Assembly (NCBI GenBank): GCA_000004695.1
Contig: CM000153.2
Coordinates: forward strand, 2,688,001-2,752,000
DNA from: Dictyostelium discoideum
Lineage: Eukaryota
Reading direction: 5' to 3'
Length of the DNA stretch: 64,000 bases
Positions 19,152 through 43,002 of the stretch are shown here, in pieces (position 1 is the stretch's first letter; each line of letters begins with the position of its first letter). The notes under the pieces are model-generated. The model saw only the letters and a list, made by a program, of their open reading frames with translations. It was not told where the DNA came from and ran no database searches. Position numbers and translations under genes: made by a program.

Positions 19152-20944
19152 CTATACAAAACCAAAACCTTCTGAAGCTTCACCAATTGCAATTTTTAAT
19201 AATTTTTTCAATTGTTCTTGAGATTCATATTCTGGTATATCCAATTGATTGAAACATGTGTGAGCGGTTGGTAATCTGTGAGCATTACCTCTGATTCTAT
19301 GAATTTGGAATTTTTGAGGGCCTCCCATACCACCTAAAGCTTTGAAACCTTCCAAAGGTACTTTACTTGTACCAGTGACAAATTGTAAGAGTGAAGCTTT
19401 TTCTTCATTTGAAAAGTTTGAAACAGTATTCCAGAACCAAAGGATTTGTTGAGAATCGGAAGAGTAACCACTATATTCAGTGTTTGCACGAAGATCATCG
19501 ATATCAATCTCTGGAAGACCACTGATCAATAATTCCAACTCCATTTCATTGAAAATACCAATCAATGATTTTGGAATGAGTTCGTGGAAACCTTCTAAGA
19601 AGCTATTGATTTGATCCTTGATTGAGTTTGTCATTCTAACGGAAGCAACCAAACGAACATATTCTAATTTATTATCTTCAGTGACAGGAATGTTTGCACC
19701 ATTTGGTTTCAATTCGATAACTTTCATGGAATCGAAAATATCGATCTCTGTACTAAATGTGAGTTCCATGACATTGGTGATATCATTATCAAGAATCCAT
19801 AAAAGATTCTTATGATAAGTTGGGTCAATTGCCTCCATATCGCTAACATTGATTGTGAGACCCAACATATGTTTATAGAAACTTCTAGTGAAGAAAGCAT
19901 CCAGCATCAAACCATCATACAATGCCTTACCAATGATTCTTCCAATGAATTTAAAGTAAGATAAATGATCTGGATTGATGTAAGATTCTGGATTTGGTTG
20001 GAAAGTTACATTATCAGAGGCAGATTGTTTAAAGAGAGCATAACCAGGATTAAACATCTCTCTTGATAAAACGAGATACCATTCACGTAATAAACCACCA
20101 GCATCAAGACCTTCTTCACCAGAGAATTGAATATTGAGTTTACCTTTGAGTTCTTCGGCTGGACGCATTCTAAGTTGATTGTAACTGTCCTCAAATATAT
20201 GATTTCTACGAACTTTTAGACGAATTGTACTTGATCTCTCTTTCTTTGATTGGAAGTAGTTTCTAAAGTAAGTTCTCTTATTATCAAAATCTAAGAATCT
20301 AGGAGTTTTAATTAATACTGCTAATGATTCCGATAACAATGAATTATCTTGACGAACGAGATCATTGATCAAATGTTTATTTTGTTCTACAAATTCAAAG
20401 AATCTACTTGTATTATAATCCATTATTGGTGGAGTTCCTGCCAAATTACCATTGCTAGTACTTGCAGACAAACCATTACCAACTGATGAACTAAGTTTTA
20501 ATCCTGCAAGACTTGGTGATGATGGAATCATAGTGGATGATAACATCTCAGAGGTTGGAGAATTTACAAGGAAATAAATTTCAACCAATGGTAATAATAA
20601 TGAATTCATTGGATTGGATCCTGCTTTCTTTTTGCTTGTAAGTTTAAGTTTGGTTATTGGTTCTTTTTCTTCCTTTTCTAAACTAAACAATGTAAGGAAT
20701 GATTTAATTGATCCCCAAAGTATATCTAATTCATGATTATTTGAAAAGTATTCTCCTAATGTCATTGATGGTTGTTCTTTCTTTGTGTTTGTTGTAGTTG
20801 TTGTAGTGGTGGTGGTTGGTGTAGTATTTGAAGTTGATGGTGTTGTAGTACTTGGTGTAGTTTCTGTAGTTGCACTTTCTGTTATAGGTGTAGTTGTAGA
20901 AGCTGCAGGTGAAGTGATTGAGTTAGCAGCTGTAGAAGATGGAG

Positions 20945-21019
<75 letters not shown>

Positions 21020-24000
21020 CAATAATTGGATCAGGTTTCTTTGGATTTAAAATTGATTGAATAGTTTGTAAAACTCTTAAGAAATTATTTTCTTTTGTTG
21101 AAGAAGGAAGATAGTTTTGAGGTGATACATCAGTATCATTAAAGATCTGTTTCATTGATTCCAAATTGTTAATTACATCTTTTGTTAATCTTTTAGCATT
21201 TGTATTTAATTGATCCAAGATGATTTGTCTATTTTCATCACAACTAACGGCAATGGTAACCAACAAACTACCAATCTTTGGATTACCAGCTAACAATGTA
21301 TTGATTAAACTTTCTACTTGTTGGCTTGGAATGAGTGGAATCTTTGGTTTTTCAGTGCTTGTAGAATCGACAATCAACAAGAGAATTGAGATCAATCTTT
21401 CAAGGAGTAAAGATTTTGAAAAGATGTTTTTATCATTCAATGCATCACATAATTTCCAAAGTGGACAGGCCTTTTCGAGGGATGGACTTGTTGAACCAGA
21501 TCCATCATCTTTCTCTTTTCCATGACTATTTTGTGATTGAGTGGAAGGTACGATTGGTTGAGGAGTTAACATCCAATTGACGGTTAAACTATTACCTGTG
21601 GTTAAACTTTGAAGAATATCCAATAATCTCTTAACGACCAATAATGGTGGATGATTTGTCACTTCGAATGATCTAAACATACGGAATCTCATTAATGGGT
21701 GACATGGATCAGTGATTGGTGAGAATTTATCAGATTCAGCGGTTTTTCTTTGGGGTTGTTGAGAAACAATTGATTGGTAACCGGTTAAAATTTGAAGGAT
21801 ATAACATAACAACTCTTCACGATTATCAGAAAATGTGCAAATTTGAACGAGAATACTATTTAATTGTTGTCTATTGATGGATTGATCAAAGTGTAGGATT
21901 TTAATGAGTGCTAATAAATTCTCTTTTTTAACCAAACTACCAGCTTGATTGACTTTCTTTGGTTTTGCAACCTCTTTGAGGATTCTACGTGGTGATGGAA
22001 TACGATTGAAACTATCAGGGATACTTGATCTAAACTCAAATCTTGGTGGATGTGTTTCACGTAATCTTACTGCTTCTGCGTGAAGTTCTGGTGGTAAGGT
22101 TTGAAGGAATGCTTCTGGTTGACTCATTAAAACCTCCTCTCTAAGATCTGGTGGAAGTGTTGCAAGGAAAGATGCATTATCCATATCTTGAACCAAATCT
22201 GTTGGATTGACTGATACTCTTGCTACATTTCTAGCTGCTTGTGATGCCCTACGTTCAGAGATAATTCTTTCTTGTTCTAAAACTTCGTTTTGAATCTCCA
22301 ATGGTAAAGCGCTTAAAAACTCTGGATTGATTGTAATTGGACCATCACCAGTGTTTGATTGGTGAATTGATGTCAATTGAGTTGACAATACCTCTGCTCT
22401 TAATTCTGCTGGTAATGCTGCTAAAAATGTTGGATCAATACCTAAATCAACATTAATTGGTGCTGGTGGAGCTTGGGTTGTTGGTGGATTAGTTGATGTG
22501 GTAGTAGTGGTGGTGGAGGAGGTGGTTGTTGAACTTGTAGTTGTTGAACTTGATGCTTCAGATTCAACTGTTGGTGATGTAGTTGTTGTTGTAGTTGCTG
22601 GTGGTGGGGTGGTTGTAGTTGTAGTAGTTGGTGGTAAATTTGTAGTTTCGGTGATTGATGAAGTTGATGTACCAGATTCTTCAAGTGGTGCATTTTCATT
22701 ATTATTAGTGGTAGTAGTTGACTCATTAGTTGACTCACTAGTTGATTCATTAGAAGTAGTAGTAGTAGTTGACTCATTAGTTGACTTATTAGTTGATTCA
22801 TTAGAAGTAGTAGTTGGTAGTGGTGTATTTACTTCTGTAGAACTTTGTTGAATTGGTGGACTTGTAACTAAAGGTTCAATAGTGAGTGGTTCGATTGGTA
22901 ATGGATCATTTACTGCTGCTGTAATTGTAGGAGAGTTTGTAACAGTCTTTGGAGTTGTTGGTGTAGAAGTAGTTGAAACATCATTTGTTGTTGGTGAAGT
23001 GGTAGTTGTTGCTGCTATTGAATCTGTTATTGAATCTATTTTTGTCTCTGTTGTAGTTATTTCAACTTTTTCAGCTCTTTCTTTTTCTTCCTTTTCTTTT
23101 TGTTGTCTCTTTAATTCTTTTAATTTTTCTTTTTCAGCTTTTTCTTTTGCTCTCAACTCTTCTTTTAATTTCTCTTTTTCAGCTTTTTCTTTTGCTTTTT
23201 GAGCTGCTTCTTCCTCTTTGGTGATTGTAGTTAAAATTTTAATGAGTATTAATTCAAATGATTGAGCATAGGCGACTGATTCATCAGTGTCATTCTTTAA
23301 ACGATTGAAATCAAAGGAGTAAAGATTTCCATCTCTACCAAGTCTCAATCTTGCATTGGAACGAAGATCGAAATTCATTATCATTTGTTCAAATCTTTCC
23401 AAGTTTCTTGTCAATTGACCTGGATCGGATCTAATAAGATCCTCGATACGACCTTCATTTTGACCAAGAGCAACGAGAATATTTGAAAGATTTCTTTCAA
23501 CATTTTCACCTATCCAATTTCTAAGATTTGCATCTGAACCACCTTGTGGCATAGCAAGACGACGATCTCCACCCAAGAAGGCTTGTTCCATCATTGGATT
23601 GAAATTTTGATGAGCACCACGGAAATGATTGATGAGGTGGTGTTGTTGTTGTTGATGGTGTTGTTGTTGTTGAGGGTGGTGATGATGATTTTGATGTTGA
23701 ATATGATTAATGTGATCGATTTGAGCGAATTGTCTTCCTCTTTGTAGATTATCTTCATTGTTACTATCATCATCCTCTTCATCATCATCGTCATCATCAT
23801 CGTCATCGTCATCATCATCATCGACATCATTTTGATCATCTTCAGAGGATGATGAACTTCCATCACTATCATTGGTATTTTCAACTTCCTCTTCTTCGTC
23901 ATCAGAATCTTGTTCATCATTGATGATTGCATCATCAATTTGACCATCCATACCATTTTCAATAACCATTTCAATGTCTTCACCATCTTCACCATCACTA

Positions 24001-27000
24001 TCGTCCTCATCGTCATCATCTTCATCATCGTCTTCGTCATCTTCATCCATTTCAATGACTTCATCTTCACTATCGGAACTGAAATCTAATCTACGAGAAC
24101 CAACACCAATTGAATTGGAGTGATGCATATCATTTTCAAATTCTGAATCGAATTCAATTGTTCCAGGTGGACCACCACCATTGAAAGAGGTGGCATTTGT
24201 TTGGAAATCTCTGGTGGCTCTAAAGAAACCATCATATGCTTGATATGGAAGTTGGAACATATTGGTTCTGGTGGAATCTTCCTCTGTGGTTGGTTTTGGA
24301 AGTGAAGAGAATTTTGTGAGGTGTCCAATAGTTTGTAATAATGAATTGATCATTTGTGATGCACGTGAACTACCAACGTCAACAAGATTTAATAACTCCA
24401 ATAAAATATTGATCATATCGTTATTGATCATAAGTTGATTGAATTCGCTTGAGAGTGAATGTGGTGGGAAATTCAATAATAATGAAACCAAATTACTAAT
24501 GGATACCATCTTATTGTATGGTATCTTTTTGTTGGCCACATTTTGTGATGAATATTCAGCGATTGATAATTTCAAATGTTCAGCGATCGCAGAGAAAACT
24601 TTTTCACGACCATCTTCGGTTGAACACAAAGAAACCAAGAATCTTGAAGCAGCTTGATGAGTTGCATTAAATAATTCACCACTTGCTTTCTCTTCAGCAG
24701 TCAATGAGGTACATGGTAAGAAATGTTCAAAAACGTATTGAACCAAATTAACACCTTGATAATTTAAAATGGTTTGTTGGAACAATGGGTATTGAATTAA
24801 TAATTCCTCTAACAACCTCAATATATTTGCTTTGCTCAAGATATTTGATGTTTTATCTTGAAGTTGTTGATCGGCTGCCAATGCTGCTGCTACACTTGTT
24901 ATACTTTTCAAAGATGAAGATTTTCTTAATTCTTTTGATAATTGTGCTGGTGTTGGTGTATTATTGGTGGTGTTGGTGTTGGTGTTGGTGTTGGTGTTGG
25001 TGTTGGTGTTGGTGTTGGTGTTGGTGTTGGTGTTGGTGTTGGTGTTGGTGTTGGTGTTGGTAGTAGTAGATATAGATGAAGTTGTTGAAATTGGTGTTTC
25101 ATCTTTAATTAATAATGATTTAATTAAAAAGTTTGAGAGTTGTTGGAAATGTGGAAAATCTTTTAATTCACAAGAACTAACATTCTTTTCAAAGATTTCA
25201 TTTGCTTGTGCAGACAAATAGACAGAGTTTGAATTGGTATGAATACGACAAATTTCTGAACAAGCCTTTAAAAAAGTGATTGGATTCTTTGAAACATCTT
25301 TAGAGAGTAAACCCAATAAAGTTTTAGTTGGAATACCTTTTGAAACACCCTTATTATTAATTGTATGACGAATATTTGATTGCATAGTGTTGTAAACGGT
25401 TTTATTATCATCCAAAAGCTGTTTGAAAATATTGATCACATAGATTGTATTCTCTTTTAACATTGAAGACTTGGTATTTTTGGCTTGTAAGAGAAGCATA
25501 CCTTGATTCTTCATAAAATAGTTTGCAATAGCATAGTTTTTAGTGAGTTCAGAGATTAATTTCAATAATGATCCATCGATTATACTTGGTGAAGGTTTCA
25601 ATAATCCTAAACAAATATCAATCAATGTAGTGTCTGTTGGTGAACATCTATCTTGTTCTTCCTCTTGTTGTTTTTGTAGTTTCTTTTCTTCTGCCTCAAA
25701 ATCAAAGTTATTGGTTGGTTTAATCAATTGTTTCTTTGAAAGGTCATATGTAATCGATAATAATCCATTCAAATAAATTAAAATTGATTCAGATGTTGTA
25801 GTTGGTGATTTAGGTCGTTTTGATGGTGTTGTTGAAGTTGATATTTTATCATCATTGGTGGATGTAGTAGTGGTGGTGGTGGTGGTAGTTGAAGAATCTA
25901 AAGGAGTAACAGAAATTTGAATTGAATCATCATTTCTAACCAAATGATCTTTTAATAAATTTGAAATGACTTTAATGACCAAAGCTAATAAACCTTTTTC
26001 AACAAATAAACCACTAATTTCTGGTGATTCATTTAATTTTTGAATTATAAAGAATAAACTTTTTGTTTTAAATGAAAAGAATTTAAGTTTTTCTTCGACC
26101 AAATGAGTTTGGACCTCTTGGATCAAACGATTTGCAATGATTTCTTTTGTTTCGCTAATGTTACCATCCTTTATAATAAAGTGAAACATTTTGAAAATAG
26201 AATCCAATTCATTTGAAGAATGACCTTTTACATTTAATAAAATGGAGAGAGTACGATCAAATAAGGTTGGACGTAAACCATTGAGTAGTGAAGTAATTGA
26301 ATTTTGTTTTTCTTTTTCTGCTTTTTCCTTTTCTAATCTCTCTTTTTCTGCCTTTTCTGCTTTTTCTGCTTTTTCTTTGGCTTTCTTTTCTTCATCCTCT
26401 GGAATGTATGGATTACTTAACATCCAATCGGTAATATTATCAACATTATTTGATTGTAATGATTGCATGGCAGTTTCAATATGTTCTCTAATAAAACCCA
26501 TATCCATGAGGGTATTTATAGAGTTTTCATTTGGAACAAAGGTTGGTCTAGAAGGTGGAGATTGAATAGATGATTTTTTAGATGGATCTTGTTGTTGTTG
26601 TGTTTGTTGTTGAGCAACACCATCATATTTGAGGAAAACATCATGTACACAATCTAATAAATTCTTGGCATAAGGAAGATCTGAAAGTTGAGGATGGTTC
26701 CAATAGTTTTGTAAATTGAATACCAAATTTGGAATAATCTTTTCAGAGATTGATTTCAATGATGGCAATGTTCCACCGTTCATACTCTTACTTGAGGTTA
26801 ATTGAAAAATGGCTTGACGTAAGAGTGAACCACATTGAGTTAAAGGTTGTGAATATTTGAAAGCATCTAAATTTCCATTGGGTATGCATTCAATATAACG
26901 ATCAGTTAAATCGGACAATATACCAAAGAATGTATCAAAATAACCAACATCATATAAACCATTGATTAATTGAGGGAACAATAATGTAGAATTATTTGTT

Positions 27001-27269
27001 AAAACCTTTGAAATGTAAACGTAATATTGTGTTTTGGCGCATGGATCTGATTCCTCTGGTTTCCATTGAATCCAACCAACTAAATTCTTTGAAATATTCT
27101 TTGTTAATAACTCTGTCTTTGTTTCATAATTTAAACCATCCCTTTTGTTTAATGAATTTATAGTTTCAAAAAAGTATCTTGATAAATCTTCTAAATTTGT
27201 TAATAAACTAGAATTTAAAAATAGATTTAAATCTAATGGTGGTTGAGTTACTGTTGTTGTAGTTGTTGC

Positions 27270-27311
<42 letters not shown>

Positions 27312-29747
27312 ATTTTCATTATTTGATGTTTCATTATTATTATTAGTTGATGATGTTGTTGATGATGATGATGATGATGATGATGAACTAATATGTTTGT
27401 TTGTTGGTGATTCATTAGTTGTTGTTGTTGTTGTTGTTGATGATGATGATGATGATGATGGTTTATTTAATGGATTAGGTAAACAAAATACTGAATTTTC
27501 ACCACAAGAAAATTCCCAATAGAATGCTTTTTGAAGTGCACAAAGTGAAGAATAAACAGAGAGTCCATCTTCTTTTGACCATTCATCTAAAACTGGAAGT
27601 GGAATATCTGGTGGATTTTCACGTACTAAACTAGTGAGAATAAGTACCAATGATTTAATAACATCGATTGTACTTTGAATATCGTCACGGCAAGCCAATT
27701 CCTCTGGTACCCAGTCTCTAATGATTCTAGAGGTTCTCCATTCACAAAGTACATCCAAAGTGGTGAAATGATTATTTAAAACCTTAATGATTGATCTGAG
27801 TACGGTTGGAGTATTATCGATACTTAAAGATTTGAAAATCATGAGATCCTTACAAATGAATTGAGAACTAGTGTAGATATCTAATAATTTCTCTAAACCA
27901 CCTTCTTGAATGAAAATCTTATCATGTTCACCATTTGAAAAGAATAATGTAATAAATTTATTGATCAATAAAAACATTTGATTGTGAGTTGATTTCTCCA
28001 AAGCAGCTGTTGATGATGATGGTGATGATTTTGGTTCTTTTGGAGGAGTCATTGCAATTACATCATCCAATAATGAAATGATTTCTTTAATAGTTGGAAT
28101 TTTTAATTCTGGGTGATGTCTAACCAATTCATCCAATCCATTTCCAATTGAATTTAATGTACGAATATTTAAAGAGTTTACATTCTTTGGATTAACCAAG
28201 GTTTTTAAAAACTTTCTAATGAGACCACTTTCTGAAACTTTGGTTTTAAAAGCAGAGTTTAAACAAAATGCATTGAGTGTCTCTGGAATGATGTAAAGTA
28301 TCTCGTGAGGAATCTCTTTATTCAAAATGAAATCGAATATCATATCAATGAGACCAGTATTATTGATTGCAGTGAAACAAGTTGGTTCATTTTGAATTAA
28401 ATTGGTTGGAATAATGAAACAATCGGCAATGATTGCTGGTATAAATGATTCGTAGTGTGAAAAAATTGATTTCAAAACTTGATGGATTGGGCTATCAACA
28501 ATTTGATTCAATAATGCTCTTGGTATTACAGCTGTACCCGAAATTGGTAATAAACAATTCATCAATCCCAATAATAATGTTGATTTATGGTATAAAAGTT
28601 TTAAATAAAATTCGTCATTTAAAATATTTTCATCAAATTTATATTCTTTTTTGGTTGTTGAATCAATTAATTGTTGTTCAGTGGTTGAAGTTGTGATGGT
28701 GTTGGTGTTGGTGGTGAGTTGCAATAAATCTTTATCTTCTTTTTTGTTTAAAATATTACTACTACTACCACTATGAACTAAAGGTTTCTTTTTCTTTGAT
28801 TCATCACTAATATTGGTTGATGATGATGATTTCTTTGAAAAATAAGTATTTTCAACAACTAAATCATCTTTAGTCTCTTCAGGTTTTTTATAATTTATGA
28901 TGAAATCAACTTCCTCTGATATTGAAGCAATTAGATCTTGAAGATAACCTTGTTCACTAAACAATTCAATATTATTTAATTTAACCAAGAAAAGTGATTG
29001 AATAATTTGAAGAGCATTGATTTGGAATCTAAGATGATATATATTGGTTGTATGATTCTTTATCAATGGAAGTAATGATTGGAATACAATGTTCTCGTGA
29101 AGTAAAGCTTTATTTGAGAGTTTGAATACAAAATAAAACATTGCATTAATGAAAGACTCGGTGATTAATGGATCTTGACTGGTACCAGTGATCACTGCAA
29201 CACATTTTCTAATTACACTTGAAAAGAAACCCGATGAGAATGATCTTTGTAAAAGTAATGTTAAACTACTGGTTGGTGTGGTACTTGCCAATGCTGCCAT
29301 AGTATAGATGCTAGCTACTAAAATTGGTTCTGGAACTATAGTATAGTTTTTTAATAACTCCATCAATTCACCCAAGTATTCGGTGTCTTGTGTTCCTCCA
29401 AAGTTGTAGTTTGTTGAATTGGATGCAAAGTTTATCAATGATTGATGATAGAGAGTATTAGTTGCTACTAATCTCAATTGCATATATTTCTTTCTATATT
29501 CATAGTTTGGTAATCCCTTTAATAAACCAATTCTAAAATGTACAAAGTATTGATCCTCCTCTGGAATACCATAATCTTGAATCAATTTGCTTGCAATCTC
29601 ATATGGTGTTGCATTAATCTTATCAATATCAAATAATCTAATTATAACTTTACCACTTTCTTCAATTGTTGATACTGTTATCTTTTCAAAAAATATTGAT
29701 TTTGAATTTATATTTATATTTGATGTTGGTGGTGATGTTGAAGATGG

Positions 29748-31813: not shown

Positions 31814-32622
31814 ATGTTAACAATATCAAGAGGATTATTAGCCACAAGTAAAACTAAAAACTTTAAATCAGTTTTTTCAAAATCATTTGGTAATTTTTTT
31901 AAAGATGGTGAATTGGTAGAAAACACAAAAGAAAATGAAAACAATCAAGAAACAATAAAAGAGAAACAGCAACAGCCACAACAACAACAAAATGATGGTA
32001 TATTATTTAATGGTAGTATAGCTTATAGAGATATGGAAAATCATGAATTTTCACAATCAAATTATCCAACCATGACAACAACCTACACTGAAAGAGAAGA
32101 AGAGAGAATTAAAAAAAATACTATTCTAAGTAAAGATAAGGAAGCTAAAGATAAGATGGTACAATTACATATTCAAAAAGATCCAACAAAGAAAGAGTTG
32201 GTAGAGAATTTTTATAGAGATTATAGAAATAAAGAAATGGAGAAAAAGATAGGTATAGAATTAACCGAAAGAGATAGAGAGTTTGTTTACGATAACATTA
32301 CATTGGATCCACCAGCAAATCCACAAAAACAACTTGAATTCCTCCTCGAATCAATTAAATCCAATGAATCATTAATGTTTACAGATCAAGAGTATCAAGT
32401 ATATCATTACCTCTTAAATCATAAAAACTCTTTAACAAAAGAACAATTGGAGCAGATTGAAGTAAACTCTAAAGAAGATTTCAAACTTGCAAATAAATTA
32501 TACGTTGCAGGTAGTTTAGCAAAAAGTTTTCAAGTATTTAAAAAATTATCAGATTCATTAAATCATGCAATGTCTGATATTTTAATTGCAAATATGTATT
32601 TTACAGGTGTTCTTCCAAAAGA

Positions 32623-32711
<89 letters not shown>

Positions 32712-33577
32712 GTGGTGGTTTTAAAAGTATAACTGAAAGTATTTTAGCAAATGATAAAGGTAAACCAGATTATGGTTTAGCATTTAAACATTTCTATAAA
32801 GCAGCAACAGTATCAAAGATGCCCGTTGCATTTGGAATGATGGGTGAATTAATTTATAAAGGTTTAGTAAAAGATTTCGATTATTATTTTAAAGGTGGTG
32901 CTGCTGCTGCTTCCACTATATTAGATTCAAACGAAAAAAGATTATCAATGGCAAAGGTTTGTTTTGCGATTGCATCACAACTTGGATTAAAGTCATCGAC
33001 TCAACAATTGGCATTTTTATTTTTAAATGAAATGAAAAATGATAATGGAGCAATCGAGATATTAAAACGTTTAGCATTAAAACATAATGATATCAATGCA
33101 GTCACAACCATTGGTGCATTGATATTAGAGGATCATCCATCAACCGCTAAAGATCTATGGTTATATGCAAGTAAAATGGGTGATTCAAATGCTCAAACCA
33201 ATTTAGGTCGTTACTATTATAATCATAGTAAAAATCCAGACTATAATAATGCATTCTTACTTTGGAGTGCCGCTTCAAAGCATAACAATCCAGATGCTCA
33301 ATTTTATTTAGGTGGAATGTTTCATTCTGGTTTAGTTGTGGAAAAAGATATTAAAAAATCACTTAGACTCTATGAAATCTCTGCAAAGAATGGTAATTCA
33401 AATTCACAATTCCTCATTGGTAGAGCCTATATCGAAGGTGACGGTGTAGAAAAAAATTTAGAAGTTGGTTATAAATTCTTATCAAAATCAATCAATCAGG
33501 ATAATCAAACAGCTTTAAATTATTTAAATGATTTAGATGAAACTGAAAAAGAAAAATATTTAAATAAAAAAAAATAA
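31814..33577 (+). CDS. Sel1-like (TPR-family) repeat protein, 587 aa. The N-terminal segment is presequence-like and there is an internal poly-N tract.
   Basis: A single ORF. The C-terminal half contains tandem Sel1-type repeats (..NAQTNLGRYYYNHSKNPDYNNAFLLWSAASKHNNPDAQFYLGGMFHSGLVVEKDIKKSLRLYEISAKNGNSNSQFLIGRAYIEGDGVEKNLEVGYKFLSKS). The N-terminus is MLTISRGLLATSKTKNFKSVFSKSF. Confidence 0.6.
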
Positions 33578-34033: not shown

Positions 34034-35623
34034 TTAACCAGTAAAAACACCAACTGAAAATCTTGAGCAATCAGGATTTGAAATAAAATCAGGATTATTG
34101 CAAAGATATAATTGATTTAAATCACTATATGATACTGAGGTTATGTCCTTAGAGAAACCAAATTCATTTAGTAATTCACTTGGATTTGAATGAAATGATA
34201 CAAACTCTTCTTTAAATAAATTGAATGATCTATTATTTGTACTATTTGTACTTGAACTAATTGAATGAGCAACTGAAGCAGTAGAACATTGTGAAGAAGC
34301 ATTACCACCATTATTTTTTGAATTTTGTGGAGAAACAGTATGAATTAACAATTTACTATTTGGGGCAGATAGCATGCCAATCGAGCCTAAAAGCGTGCCG
34401 ATCTCCTCTTCGGTTAAATACATTAAAACACCCTCCAACACCCAAAGAGTATGCATTGCAGGATTGAAGCCGCAATCTAACAAACTTCCAATCCAACGAT
34501 CACCTTCCTTTACGATATCACCACCGATATAATTGATATGACATTGACTTGTTGGTTTTATAATTGTAGTTGCTTTTTCTAAAACTTTTTTCTTATAATT
34601 TATAACATGTGGTAAATCGATCTCGAATACAGATACATGTTTATCAATTGGTAATCTCAATGAACGACTATCCAATCCTGAACCACAAAAAACAACTTGA
34701 GTATAAAAAAATGCTGATGCATTAAAATGTGCAACTGTTCCTTTAATTGATAAACTATCCATTATCACTTGATCTATATATTTAGTTCTAAATCCAATTT
34801 TATTAATTGAATTTCCACCTTTTTGAAATTCTAACCATGATTGAATTGGATGTGATTTCATTATAAATTCTTTATATGTTACATTATTATTATTATTATT
34901 ATTTATATTTATATTATTACTACTATTATTTAAAAATTGTTGTTGTGGTGAAACTGAATGAAATAATTGAAAACTATCTAAAAGGAGTTGTTTTGATTCT
35001 TCAGTATCTAAAAAGAAAATTGCAAATGGGTCATATATACAAAGTTGGTCACAAACAAATGATAATTGATTTTCAGGTATTAAATCTTGAATGTAAAGAC
35101 CATGTTCAATTAATTTTCTTATATTATCAAAATCTTTACTATTATTATTATTTATATTTATATTTGTTTTACTATTGGTTGTATTATTTAAATCTTGACT
35201 TGAATTTAAACTTTTTGTCATTATACTTAAGAATTTATTTGTTAATATTGCTCTTGAAGCTGCTCCAAAAAATGATGTTCTTGTAATACCTTTTTTTACT
35301 TCATCCTCTTCTCCAATTTCATTTAATAATAATAATTGCTGTTGTTGTTGTTGTAGTAATTGTTGTTGTTGTTGTTGTTGTTGCTGTTGTTGTTGCATAA
35401 TTCTTTTTTGTTCAGCTTCGGCAGCTTGTTTTTGTTGTTGCTGTTGTAGTAATTGTTGTTGTCTTTGTTGGTTATGCATTAATTGTTGTTTTAAAATTAA
35501 TTCTTGTTGTTCTAATAATTCCTTTTCATTATATAAGGGTGATAATCTTATATTATCTGAACTACTTTTATTTAATAAATTGATTTCGCCACTGCTATTA
35601 TGACTTAATAATTGAGTTTCCAT
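34034..35623 (-). CDS. SAM-dependent methyltransferase of the LCM (leucine carboxyl methyltransferase / TcmP-like O-methyltransferase) superfamily, with a 120-aa poly-Q/coiled-coil N-terminal extension. 529 aa.
   Basis: Family signature blocks are present: GFRTKYIDQVIMDSL (bacterial-type R-T-R-x-I-D), QVVFCGSGLDSRSLRL (VxxLGAGLDTRxxRL), VFEIDLPHVINYKKKVL, and HTLWVLEGVLMYLTEEE (WxxEGLLxYL). The ORF is single and complete. Confidence 0.65.
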   Translation of the reverse strand: METQLLSHNSSGEINLLNKSSSDNIRLSPLYNEKELLEQQELILKQQLMHNQQRQQQLLQQQQQKQAAEAEQKRIMQQQQQQQQQQQQLLQQQQQQLLLLNEIGEEDEVKKGITRTSFFGAASRAILTNKFLSIMTKSLNSSQDLNNTTNSKTNININNNNSKDFDNIRKLIEHGLYIQDLIPENQLSFVCDQLCIYDPFAIFFLDTEESKQLLLDSFQLFHSVSPQQQFLNNSSNNININNNNNNNVTYKEFIMKSHPIQSWLEFQKGGNSINKIGFRTKYIDQVIMDSLSIKGTVAHFNASAFFYTQVVFCGSGLDSRSLRLPIDKHVSVFEIDLPHVINYKKKVLEKATTIIKPTSQCHINYIGGDIVKEGDRWIGSLLDCGFNPAMHTLWVLEGVLMYLTEEEIGTLLGSIGMLSAPNSKLLIHTVSPQNSKNNGGNASSQCSTASVAHSISSSTNSTNNRSFNLFKEEFVSFHSNPSELLNEFGFSKDITSVSYSDLNQLYLCNNPDFISNPDCSRFSVGVFTG

Positions 35624-40421: not shown

Positions 40422-43002
40422 CAAAAACATGAAATAAAAATAAAATAAAAGAAAATTAGAAAATAATAATTAATAATTATTCAAAATTAATATAATACAA
40501 ACATTTTCAGTTTTAAACTTTTCAACAATTTTTTTAAATTGTTGTTTTGAATGAGATTGTTGGAATTGAATATCAGAAGGTGGTAAAGTTAATAATAGTT
40601 CATCCATTTTTGTGTAGTATTCAATTAATGGTTTGAATTTGAGATCAATTAAAAAGTTTACATAGATTTCCAAATTTTCTTTAAAAATTGATTGAGAGGT
40701 ATCTTTATGTTGAGTTAGACAATTGATATTAAGTTCTTGTAATTTCAAATAAAAGAAATAATGATTCTCAAGTTTTGAAATGAATTTGTATTTTTTATCC
40801 TCTGGTAATTTCTCTACCAAACCATCCAACCAATTAAATAGCTCTAATATGATCTTCTTATAGGATGATTCAATTAAAAGAGTGCTTGAACCAGTGTCTG
40901 ATTCAGATTTATACTTTTGTAATTCTTTAACAAAGATATGAAAATTTCTAAAATGTGGTAAAACACCACATCTCTTTAAAGAGGTTTGAGTTGACTTAAT
41001 TGCATCAACTTGAACTTCTAAAAATTTGTTGAATAAAGTTTTTATACTTTTTTGTACCTCTGCCAAAATCTTTACAAAATATGAAGAATGATGAGAATCT
41101 TTACGTGAATGAGCGTCAATATATAACTCTGTTTCAAGTAACATTGTTAAAAGATAGAATGGATTAACTTGATCAGCTTTTTCAACCATATTTATTAATT
41201 CTGGTACAACTCCATTAAACATTGCACTTAATATTAAATCCAATGGTGCATCTGGTGATTCTTTAGGTGGTGGTGGTGGTGGTGGTGGTGGTGATGATTC
41301 TTCTGTTGATGATAATGAGCCATTGACTGCATTATTTGGAGATTTTGGACTATTTGAATCAATTGGTTTATCATTATCCAATGAAGGTGATGATGATGAA
41401 TCTGGATCTTTTTTTTTTTTATCTTTTTTATCTTTTTTATCTTTTTTATCTTTTTTATCTTTTTTACTTGATTTTTTATCTTTTCTATCCTTACCATCTT
41501 TATTACTACCACTACCACCACCACTACTATTTGAATGATGATTACGTTGACCAGCTAGTCTTGGTGGGTCTTGATATAAAAAGAAATCCATTACAAAATT
41601 TTGTTTTGTCATTATATAAATTTCTAAACAAGATAATGCATATTTAAATAATCTATTGATTTTACGTTTTTTAATACCATCTTTGCCACTACTACTACTA
41701 CTACTACTACTACTATTTTTAGATGGTGTACTTGTTGATGTATTGTTATTTAAACTATCAATTGATTTCTTTGATGAAGATGAAGAAGAAAAGAAATCAT
41801 TTTGATCCTTTGATTCTTTTTCTAATGACTGTTGAATAGTTGAAAAGAAAAGTTTAATATCACTTTCATAAATTCGACGAAATGCTTTAATATAAGAAAC
41901 AATCAATGGGATTAACTTTTCATGATCCATCTCTTTCAACCAATTAACCAATGGTTTAAATTTTCTTAAAAGGTCATAGTATTCCAAGTAATCTGGAAAC
42001 TTTTCTTCACCGGGTGTTTGAGATGTTGTTGTGATGACATGTTTACCAATTTCCTTATCAGTGGTTTTAAATATATTTTCAACCAATGCTGCGACCTTTC
42101 TTGCAAATGAGATTTTATAAGTTTCAAATACCTTTCTTTGATCTTTAACAGCCATCATATTATCCATACCACTCTTTAATTTGGTTGTTAATGCACGTTT
42201 TAAATCTTCAGCTGCTTCAATTGCCATCTTTAATCCCTTGGTATCGTTAAATTGTGGTGCTGTTAGTGTGGAAATTGTGTTGTCTGATAAAGTCATTAAC
42301 CCAATTAAATTATTCAATTCAGAGTATAATAACTTTTGATTTCTTGATACAATCTCCATCTTATTATTCTTTCCTTCAATATGTTCAATATATTTCTTCA
42401 TATCTTGTAATTGTTTATTATAATACTCAATCCATGCCGTCACACCTGTTAAATGTGTACCATCTTTATCACCTAATTGACTTATAACTTCATTAACTCC
42501 AACACCTGAATCTAAAACACCAACAATCATTTCCTTTAAAAAAAAAAAAAAAAAAAAAAAAAATTATTAATTATTAATTATTATAAAATAAAAATTTATT
42601 TTATTATATAATTTAACATACAGTTTCTAAAGTTGATAACGTTTTACCTAAACGTTCAGTTAAAATATCAACATCTTTTTCAAATGAGAGATAATTATTA
42701 ATAACATTTTCTAAATCTTCATCACCATCATTATTTCCCAAACTAGTTGCACTACTACTTAGAGTATTGTTTGATGGACCATTGCTTACATTATCATTCG
42801 ATTGTGATAGAAATGATGGGTACTCAAGTATTGGGATATTACTATGATGGTGATTTTCACTATCACTCTCTGAATGTGTGGTTTCTGATGGATCGTATTC
42901 ACTCTCACTATATTGACTATATCTATCACTAAATTGACCGCTATATCTATTATGTTGAATACCCACTCTACTAATACCACCTGAATATCCAAGATGATCC
43001 AT
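40155..43002 (-). CDS. exoc1: Exocyst complex component Sec3 (EXOC1)-like, 3 exons. There is no N-terminal PH (PIP2-binding) domain in this locus.
   Basis: complement(join(40155..40382,40503..42533,42622..43002)), with a GTATGT donor (42621) and a GTTTGT donor (40502). Similarity to human EXOC1 is direct: GVLPHFRNFHIFVKELQ vs GILPFVAEFEEFAGLAE; the terminal exon QLILVIWERLEEVFIEKYEHFQDITSDCY vs [28 protein letters not shown]; and the N-terminal coiled coil EDLENVINNYLSFEKDVDILTERL..NKQLQDMKKYIEHIEGKNNKMEIVSRNQKLLYSELNNLIGLM vs [47 protein letters not shown].. There is an internal S-rich/KDKKDKK low-complexity insert. The last intron's acceptor follows a 45-nt poly-A tract, which is unusual. 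Confidence 0.65.

Follow-up and report, generated by a model that had tools for sequence, protein, structure and literature searches.

The gene described here lies on the minus strand at 34034..35623 of a 64,000-nucleotide stretch of Dictyostelium discoideum DNA (assembly GCA_000004695.1, contig CM000153.2, positions 2,688,001 to 2,752,000), which is called the window throughout. Judging from its sequence, it probably encodes an active class-I S-adenosylmethionine (SAM)-dependent methyltransferase of the TIGR00027/ML2640c-Rv0731c ("OPCMT-like") type, inherited vertically within Dictyostelia and carrying a Q/L-rich helix gained late. The gene is an ordinary conserved dictyostelid member of the known TIGR00027/ML2640c family, and the term "bacterial-type", used for it in an initial annotation, holds as a family label only. 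The protein has two derived features: a doubled substrate-binding helical domain, which is found clade-wide, and a Q-rich helical extension, which is lineage-specific.

The gene is a single uninterrupted open reading frame (ORF) running from ATG to stop in one exon and encoding 529 aa. The window is very AT-rich (23% GC overall) and its encoded proteins are dictyostelid. The ORF and all four of the motifs quoted in the initial annotation were found as described. The gene is also intronless, as had been stated, and the orthologue models from D. citrinum and D. purpureum likewise have one exon each and align with it end to end. A poly-Q N-terminus of 120 aa had been reported; the extension is present, but its length is ~100 aa (residues ~4-104; 34% Gln, 18% Leu), with 35 Gln and 19 Leu in residues 1-104. 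The catalytic domain starts at about residue 105 with the helix that carries T116 and R124, and the Pfam match covers it only from residue 267 on. Three N/S-rich low-complexity inserts interrupt the catalytic domain (Table 1); these were absent from the initial annotation.

Family placement

The protein matches Pfam PF04072 (LCM) with E=2e-28. It scores 111.4 bits against NCBIfam TIGR00027, above the curated cutoff of 93.55, with residues 272-492 aligned to profile positions 57-244 of 259. In a sequence search of the PDB the best matches were ML2640c of M. leprae (E=4e-12) and Rv0731c of M. tuberculosis (E=1e-10), while human LCMT1 reached E=0.45. A profile built from four orthologues gave 6e-21 and 2e-18 for ML2640c/Rv0731c and 2e-3 for LCMT1.

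The structure was predicted with AlphaFold2 from a 79-sequence alignment (mean predicted local distance difference test score (pLDDT) 80.8, predicted template modelling score (pTM) 0.76). The predicted fold has an N-terminal helical domain followed by a class-I Rossmann α/β domain. The top five PDB matches in Foldseek were 6ID6, 2UYQ, 2CKD (chains A and B) and 2UYO, with E-values of 6e-13 to 3.5e-11 and template modelling (TM) scores of 0.64-0.70. A second tier consisted of LCMT1, TYW4 and PPM1 with E-values of ~1e-7 to 1e-6 and, for LCMT1 and PPM1, TM scores of ~0.5 (LCMT1: E 7e-8, TM 0.51). Since the sequence, profile and fold searches all rank ML2640c/Rv0731c above LCMT1, the TIGR00027/ML2640c-Rv0731c placement is correct. 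This agrees with the initial annotation, which had assigned the gene to the mycobacterial-type LCM branch rather than to LCMT1/PPM1.

It is hardly credible that the gene encodes an LCMT1/PPM1-type protein phosphatase 2A (PP2A) leucine carboxyl methyltransferase or an LCMT2/TYW4-type enzyme. The Pfam LCM domain is common to the gene and LCMT1/LCMT2, and the UniRef names of two relatives point in this direction ("[Phosphatase 2A protein]..." for P0003 and "Leucine carboxyl methyltransferase 1" for P0020). However, LCMT1 trails ML2640c in both the sequence and the profile search, its fold match is weaker, the TIGR00027 subfamily cutoff is passed and the window protein carries the Thr20/Tyr194 small-molecule landmarks described below. 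An LCMT1 identity was ruled out, since the match is weaker in sequence, profile and fold than that to ML2640c/Rv0731c. The two UniRef names look like over-annotation propagated from the Pfam family name. TcmP, the tetracenomycin polyketide carboxyl O-methyltransferase, belongs to the same broad family and would be a plausible functional analogue in an organism rich in polyketides, although only as a lead. The neighbours in the window are Sel1, HECT and Sec3 genes, with no polyketide synthase.

Landmark residues and proposed chemistry

ML2640c, Rv0731c and MnMT4 are small-molecule carboxyl methyltransferases, as reported in a 2023 study that used mutagenesis and structures (PMC10193983). In ML2640c the carboxylate of the substrate is held in place and desolvated by Thr20 and Tyr194, and SAM is bound by Arg28, Arg90, Ala113-Ser114-Gly115, Asp135, Asp164-Leu165 and Glu189-Gly190 (PMC10193983). 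A unique N-terminal helical domain provides a large hydrophobic pocket for the substrate (PMC10193983).

These residues were mapped by HMMER alignments to chain 2ckd_A, in which the chain index plus 3 gives the PMC10193983 numbering. Both carboxylate landmarks are present in the window protein (T116 for Thr20 and Y402 for Tyr194); at position 194 either Tyr or Phe counts as the landmark, and at position 113 either Ala or Gly. The SAM-binding landmarks R124, R279, G314-S315-G316, D336, D369-I370 and E397-G398 are present as well, with R124 equivalent to the SAM-contacting Arg28. Nine landmark positions, T-R-R-G-D-D-E-G-Y, are kept in nearly all of the 283 family members examined; the Thr20 equivalent is Thr in 234/283 and the Tyr194 equivalent is Tyr in 275/283. 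The motifs that the initial annotation had read as the mark of an actinobacterial branch are family-wide, being invariant or nearly so in these 283 diverse members, and do not single out that branch.

In the proposed mechanism SAM would be held by the SAM-binding residues listed above, and T116 and Y402 would hydrogen-bond and desolvate the carboxylate of a hydrophobic small-molecule acid. [quoted passage not shown] Methyl-ester formation on hydrophobic carboxylic acids is inferred by homology, and fatty, polyketide or terpenoid acids are candidate substrates. Since the helical domain is ~2x the usual size in dictyostelids, the substrate probably differs from the mycobacterial one and exceeds it in size. 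To our knowledge, no eukaryotic enzyme of the TIGR00027/ML2640c type has been characterised.

The dictyostelid family and its enlarged helical domain

The gene belongs to an orthologous subgroup that comprises D. discoideum ACTFIR_010781, D. citrinum ACTFIV_004168, D. purpureum DICPUDRAFT_50193, P. violaceum CYY_001235 and T. lacteum DLAC_01402. The closest database entry, ACTFIR_010781 (P0001), is 96% identical by BLASTP and 98% identical over aligned columns, with several point substitutions and differences in repeat length. The identical 529-aa sequence was not found in a collection of 15 billion sequences, so the window would stem from another isolate or a very close sibling species. DICPUDRAFT_50193 shares 60% identity and is likewise syntenic with the Sel1 gene, and the existence of this D. 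purpureum orthologue dates the gene to before the group-4 radiation. A word-indexed protein search with the core returned six dictyostelid orthologues only, and a 60-sequence profile used in a search of this kind brought no further relatives, being overwhelmed by low-complexity words.

Of 1.84 billion representative proteins searched exhaustively with a profile, 6,628 were relatives. The best 30 non-orthologue matches were looked up by name, and 20 of them are dictyostelid paralogues. They come from Tieghemostelium (3), Cavenderia (2), Acytostelium (2), Polysphondylium violaceum (3), Synstelium (1) and Heterostelium (8, counting the cluster-mate of one match); one EukProt entry among the 20 groups with dictyostelid paralogues. 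When the orthologues DLAC_01402 and CYY_001235 are added, Tieghemostelium and P. violaceum have four members each. Named members include T. lacteum DLAC_01402/01557/04064/01405, H. album PPL_03725/02976/02979/03445 and others, and C. fasciculata DFA_08742/08744. In neighbour-joining trees the dictyostelid members form one clade, which includes the orthologue group of the window gene.

Locus tags and contigs suggest that some paralogues are tandem or nearby copies. DLAC_01402/01405 lie on one 45.7-kb contig, and PPL_03443/03445, PPL_02976/02979, PPL_09593/09615 and DFA_08742/08744 are further such pairs. The window itself has one copy.

The segment between the residues equivalent to Thr20 and Arg90 measures 109-180 aa in every dictyostelid member (162 in the window protein). 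It is shorter elsewhere, with 101 aa in P0030, the nearest outsider, and 47-79 aa in each of the remaining bacterial and eukaryotic members. Members that are poor in low complexity are also expanded, such as P0007 of T. lacteum (125 aa) and P0012 of H. album (109 aa). The expansion of the helical domain is clade-defining and independent of the low-complexity inserts. Helices are predicted in this domain at residues 159-173, 184-189, 201-205, 208-222, 250-256, 259-266 and 272-291. A dictyostelid HPIxSW motif lies within it as well (residues 126-278). The multigenus family and the clade-wide expanded domain together place the presence, expansion and duplication of the family before the dictyostelid radiation, and the gene would be a vertically inherited member of a family that was already duplicating in the common ancestor of Dictyostelia.

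Q/L-rich helix and low-complexity inserts

The initial annotation had called the N-terminus a coiled coil, which is not shown; what the AlphaFold2 model has is a single long helix at residues 33-146, and in residues 41-90 the block-mean pLDDT is 91-97. Since the extension is continuous with α1 in the predicted helix, it prolongs α1 and is not a separate domain. Only D. discoideum, D. citrinum and D. purpureum have the extension, and in them it follows the conserved MET...DN(I/L) start. In the P. violaceum and T. lacteum orthologues the same start leads straight into the catalytic domain. This bears out the earlier description of a host-style low-complexity addition, since the Q-rich segment is lineage-specific and absent from the Polysphondylium and Tieghemostelium orthologues. 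The Q/L extension proper (residues ~33-104) would be a late gain in the D. discoideum/citrinum/purpureum lineage by which α1 became a helix of ~110 residues. The low dN/dS of residues 1-104 (0.079 vs D. citrinum, Nei-Gojobori) suggests that the extension is not junk. It may serve in self-association or localisation. It is not needed for catalysis, because orthologues that lack it are otherwise complete.

The three N/S-rich inserts behave differently from the core. Their length differs between species and their pooled dN/dS is 0.44 vs D. citrinum, ~7x faster than the core. They lie in segments of low-to-moderate model confidence, although part of insert 1 is predicted to be helical. These inserts would be loop expansions typical of the D. 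discoideum genome. The gene is a clean case of poly-Q/poly-N tolerance, in which loop inserts evolve freely and a Q-rich helix is constrained.

A constrained extension (dN/dS 0.08) that is predicted to form a long helix could also belong to a catalytically dead scaffold or pseudoenzyme with its real function in the Q-rich helix. However, every SAM- and carboxylate-binding landmark is kept, the core has a dN/dS of 0.065 and the orthologues without the extension are otherwise complete, so this explanation is very improbable.

Selection and chromosomal setting

The core is under strong purifying selection, with a dN/dS of 0.065 vs D. citrinum and 0.18 vs D. purpureum (Nei-Gojobori). The window and D. 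citrinum agree in gene order (the LCM gene, an opposite-strand Sel1-repeat gene and a giant HECT ligase), and D. purpureum keeps this order as far as its contig reaches. The GC content at third codon positions (GC3) is 0.13, inside the 0.09-0.22 range of the neighbouring ORFs, and is 0.19 in the most conserved core segment. Codon usage and GC3 of the core had been suggested as a check for foreign origin; the composition is host-like and gives no such sign. No second copy or fragment of the gene was found within the window. Recent transfer or contamination was ruled out by the neighbour-like GC3, the conserved synteny and the absence of a second copy in the window.

Relatives outside Dictyostelia

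The nearest outside relatives are environmental proteins on contigs of 0.9-2 kb, and their amino-acid composition is not actinobacterial. There are weak hints that the source of these contigs is eukaryotic, namely (GT)n-rich leaders (L003, L019), an 86-nt ORF interruption (L002) and the lack of a Shine-Dalgarno sequence. Leaving aside proteins known or suspected to be dictyostelid, the best-scoring match in the exhaustive profile search is P0009, a tandem two-domain LCM/TIGR00027 protein encoded at L006:10001-11809 on a 51-kb JGI contig of 45% GC. Its neighbours encode Misato/Tubulin_3, a secreted pepsin-type protease, Reprolysin+WW, GGT and a presequence-bearing GluRS; the contig is from a eukaryotic, intron-poor genome. 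P0077 has a eukaryote-like architecture of transmembrane (TM)+LCM+CBM_20 (a starch-binding domain) with long low-complexity linkers, and P0204, a EukProt transcript, is a close-scoring relative. Proteins of the TIGR00027 type have also been reported in Chlamydomonas, plants and fungi (PMC10193983). Confirmed bacterial members are found further out, on contigs L010 and L011 (with two-component systems), in a Bdellovibrionaceae metagenome-assembled genome (MAG) and in one Bacteroidota genome.

The dictyostelid paralogues score 93-161 bits, the nearest outsiders 75-89 and the actinobacteria 52-58 (mycobacterial 52-55). In the trees no named group lies farther out than the actinobacterial members, and only the single Bacteroidota sequence scores lower. 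A scan of GTDB genome contigs found one distant Bacteroidota locus only, with search patterns that were strongly dictyostelid-specific. A metagenome scan with a four-sequence sister alignment found relatives that are 32-35% identical and the short, possibly chimeric fragment L019.

Origin of the gene and alternative explanations

The neighbour-joining trees place the dictyostelids beside environmental tiers and eukaryote-labelled sequences, with bacteria deeper; the deep bootstraps are weak and most of the neighbours carry no taxonomy. The initial annotation had proposed a horizontal acquisition and named phylogeny as a check. An acquisition at the level of Dictyostelium does not hold, as the family occurs in six dictyostelid genera besides Dictyostelium. 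Since it is a multigene family in all six sampled genera outside Dictyostelium, any transfer must be older than Dictyostelia.

An ancient transfer specifically from the actinobacterial TcmP/mycobacterial Omt branch, later "domesticated" with low complexity, is unlikely. Actinobacteria dominate the family numerically (PMC10193983) and the only solved relatives are mycobacterial. When the tree is rooted on mycobacteria, the dictyostelids and nearest tiers form the tip of a ladder that includes L010, L011 and the Bdellovibrionaceae MAG. The gene is intronless, and the best 30 matches looked up by name included no named amoebozoan from outside Dictyostelia. However, the actinobacterial members lie farthest out of the named groups, at 52-58 bits where the nearest outsiders reach 75-89, the supposedly diagnostic motifs are family-wide, the composition is fully host-like and eukaryotic relatives exist (P0009, P0204, P0077 and those in Chlamydomonas, plants and fungi). 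[quoted passage not shown] The family does not fit this pattern, being reported in Chlamydomonas, plants and fungi (PMC10193983) and having a relative on a eukaryotic contig, P0009; none of the 16 listed D. discoideum candidates belongs to it (PMC3188802). No viral vector was found either: a giant-virus route was ruled out, since no relatives were found in viral contigs and the matches in BFVD were all generic class-I methyltransferases (E ≥ 3e-5). An actinobacterial donor is therefore not supported. At greater depth the family may go back to old eukaryotic inheritance or to a bacterial transfer.

Such a transfer could have come from a non-actinobacterial bacterium and reached a eukaryote before the dictyostelid radiation. 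The recipient may have been a wider protist lineage, with duplication within Dictyostelia afterwards. This is a possibility of some weight, although on balance less likely than not. The trees set the Bdellovibrionaceae-like and L010/L011 bacterial groups between the dictyostelid-proximal tiers and the Actinobacteria, and the eukaryotic distribution looks patchy (PMC10193983). Against it, the nearest tiers (P0030, P0043, P0031, P0039 and others) carry no taxonomic label and some of them hint weakly at a eukaryote through the leaders, the ORF interruption and the missing Shine-Dalgarno sequence. The weak deep bootstraps also count against it, and AT-driven compositional attraction could bias both the score ranking and the trees.

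Vertical inheritance of an active OPCMT-like methyltransferase remains the preferred explanation, and several points weigh against it. Bootstrap support for the dictyostelid clade is modest (33/50 with 163 sequences, and 61/200 when a small labelled set is used). The ester chemistry is drawn from two mycobacterial enzymes and MnMT4 (PMC10193983) and might fail where the substrate domain is remodelled; the wider LCM superfamily also includes methylation of a protein C-terminus (LCMT1) and of a tRNA base (TYW4). For the extension, dN/dS across CAA/CAG repeats is a weak measure, and the high helix confidence comes from a monomer prediction, which carries no information on oligomeric state.

Feature coordinates and other observations

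The features of the gene are collected in Table 1.

Table 1. Parts of the LCM-family gene, with positions in the window
Feature	Residues	Position	Strand	Basis
Complete single-exon coding sequence, 529 aa + stop	1-529	34034..35623	-	ORF list; orthologues align from MET... to ...FTG
Disordered N-terminus	1-32	35528..35623	-	pLDDT <50; MET start and DNI/L motif common to short orthologues
Q/L-rich helical extension	33-104	35312..35527	-	Composition; AlphaFold2 helix; absent from P0004, P0005, P0006
Helix α1, GITRTSFFGAASRA, with T116 and R124	112-125	35249..35290	-	Profile alignment to 2ckd_A; family conservation
Expanded N-terminal helical (putative substrate-binding) domain	126-278	34790..35248	-	Thr20→Arg90 spacing; predicted helices
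DP(F/Y)A motif, family-wide	197-201	35021-35035	-	Within helical domain
N-rich insert 1	136-175	35099..35218	-	N11/40, GC3 0.03; length varies among orthologues
N-rich insert 2	226-255	34859..34948	-	Block-mean pLDDT 75, 52, 69 for residues 221-250
RTKYID; R279 = ML2640c Arg90 (SAM carboxylate/ribose contact)	279-284	34772..34789	-	Arg in 277/283
GSGLDSRSLRL, glycine-rich SAM loop	314-324	34652..34684	-	G314-S315-G316 = Ala113-Ser114-Gly115; Gly in 283/283
EIDLPHVI; D336 = Asp135 (ribose hydroxyls)	334-341	34601..34624	-	Alignment to 2ckd_A
D-I = Asp164-Leu165 (adenine contact)	369-370	34514..34519	-	Alignment to 2ckd_A
WVLEGVLMYL; E397-G398 = Glu189-Gly190 (SAM tail), Y402 = Tyr194 (carboxylate contact)	394-403	34415..34444	-	
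S/N-rich insert 3, disordered loop	441-470	34214..34303	-	pLDDT <50 at 437-439, 443-459; absent from P0004-P0006
C-terminal β-strands and helices of α/β domain	471-529	34037..34213	-	Ends in conserved FS(V/T)G.FTG

The Sel1-repeat neighbour (window 31814-33577, plus strand) encodes 587 aa and has an unbroken poly-Asn tract of ~30 residues. A Sel1 gene also stands beside the LCM gene in D. purpureum, and a matching 652-aa gene is in the same place in D. citrinum. The HECT ubiquitin ligase (19152-29483, minus strand; 3,443 aa) has a HUWE1-like DUF908/DUF913/UBM/HECT architecture, and an exocyst Sec3 homologue lies at 40470-42530 on the minus strand. Since the HECT and Sec3 genes on the flanks are ordinary eukaryotic housekeeping genes, they are consistent with a normal chromosomal setting.

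Several contigs of the sister tier have irregular structures. In L002:1-180, which encodes P0043, the conserved N-terminal motif VGVTALFTSVARALETERPD(R) is cut off from an in-frame (R)IINDPFA by the 86-nt A-rich stretch, which has the 6-nt direct repeat ACAGGA at its flanks and lacks GT-AG boundaries. An assembly artefact, a non-canonical intron or a small insertion that duplicated its target site could account for this stretch. In L009:300-330, which encodes P0040, a 1-nt frameshift just upstream of VVVLGSGLDTR splits a sister-group gene into two ORFs and may be a sequencing error or the sign of a pseudogene. G/T-rich microsatellite-like repeats occur immediately upstream of the LCM coding sequence in L003:40-125 and L019:520-600. 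In L019 only the last ~38 LCM codons follow the repeat and CBS-domain coding sequence flanks them on the opposite strand at either end, which may mean that the contig is chimeric. The convergent LCM/CBS arrangement recurs in L007, and a tRNA scan of L007 was negative. Among the more distant relatives, P0025 and P0049 are further tandem fusions, both rich in G/A/R/P, and P0167 joins AHSA1 to LCM.

Significance

TIGR00027/ML2640c-type (OPCMT-like) methyltransferase is the name that the gene and its orthologues should carry, in place of the PP2A leucine carboxyl methyltransferase of some automatic annotations. On present evidence, the gene has no place on the list of bacterial transfers into Dictyostelium. 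Its biological interest is modest and lies in the family as a whole, which spans the dictyostelids, undergoes duplication, has an enlarged substrate domain and probably consists of small-molecule carboxyl methyltransferases.

The chemistry of dictyostelids is known to be rich in polyketides and small signals. A wider reading would make the Dictyostelia and an environmental sister lineage (P0030, P0040, P0051, P0084) a distinct OPCMT-like subfamily with a doubled helical domain and repeated duplication (at least 7 copies in Heterostelium). Its members would make methyl esters of polyketide, fatty-acid or terpenoid signals that act in development or in interactions with bacteria. The founder would have come from non-actinobacterial bacteria into a protist ancestor, and the constrained Q/L helix of ~110 residues would oligomerise or localise the enzyme. 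Taken as a whole, this reading is speculative and rather doubtful.

Comparison with known systems

LCMT1 methylates a protein C-terminus (PP2A-C) and TYW4 a tRNA base, and neither acts on small-molecule acids. LCMT1/PPM1 and LCMT2/TYW4 have the PF04072 core and the SAM-binding topology in common with the window protein, but they differ in the arrangement of the N-terminal region and lid and are far less similar in sequence.

The dictyostelid paralogues belong to the same clade as the window gene and have the same expanded helical domain and landmarks. The Q-rich extension and the long N/S inserts are confined to the D. discoideum, D. citrinum and D. purpureum orthologues and are not found in other dictyostelid members.

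The characterised mycobacterial enzymes, ML2640c (PDB 2CKD, 2UYO, 2UYQ) and Rv0731c (6ID6), are of the same Pfam family, NCBIfam subfamily and fold as the window protein and have the same nine landmarks. However, identity to them is only ~17-21% over the structural alignment, and the host of the window protein is a eukaryote rather than a mycobacterium. The window protein is also larger (529 aa vs ~300 aa), and its Thr20→Arg90 spacing is 162 aa, compared with 69 by ML2640c numbering. Unlike ML2640c and Rv0731c, it has a Q/L-rich helix of 100 aa at its N-terminus and low-complexity inserts in three loops.

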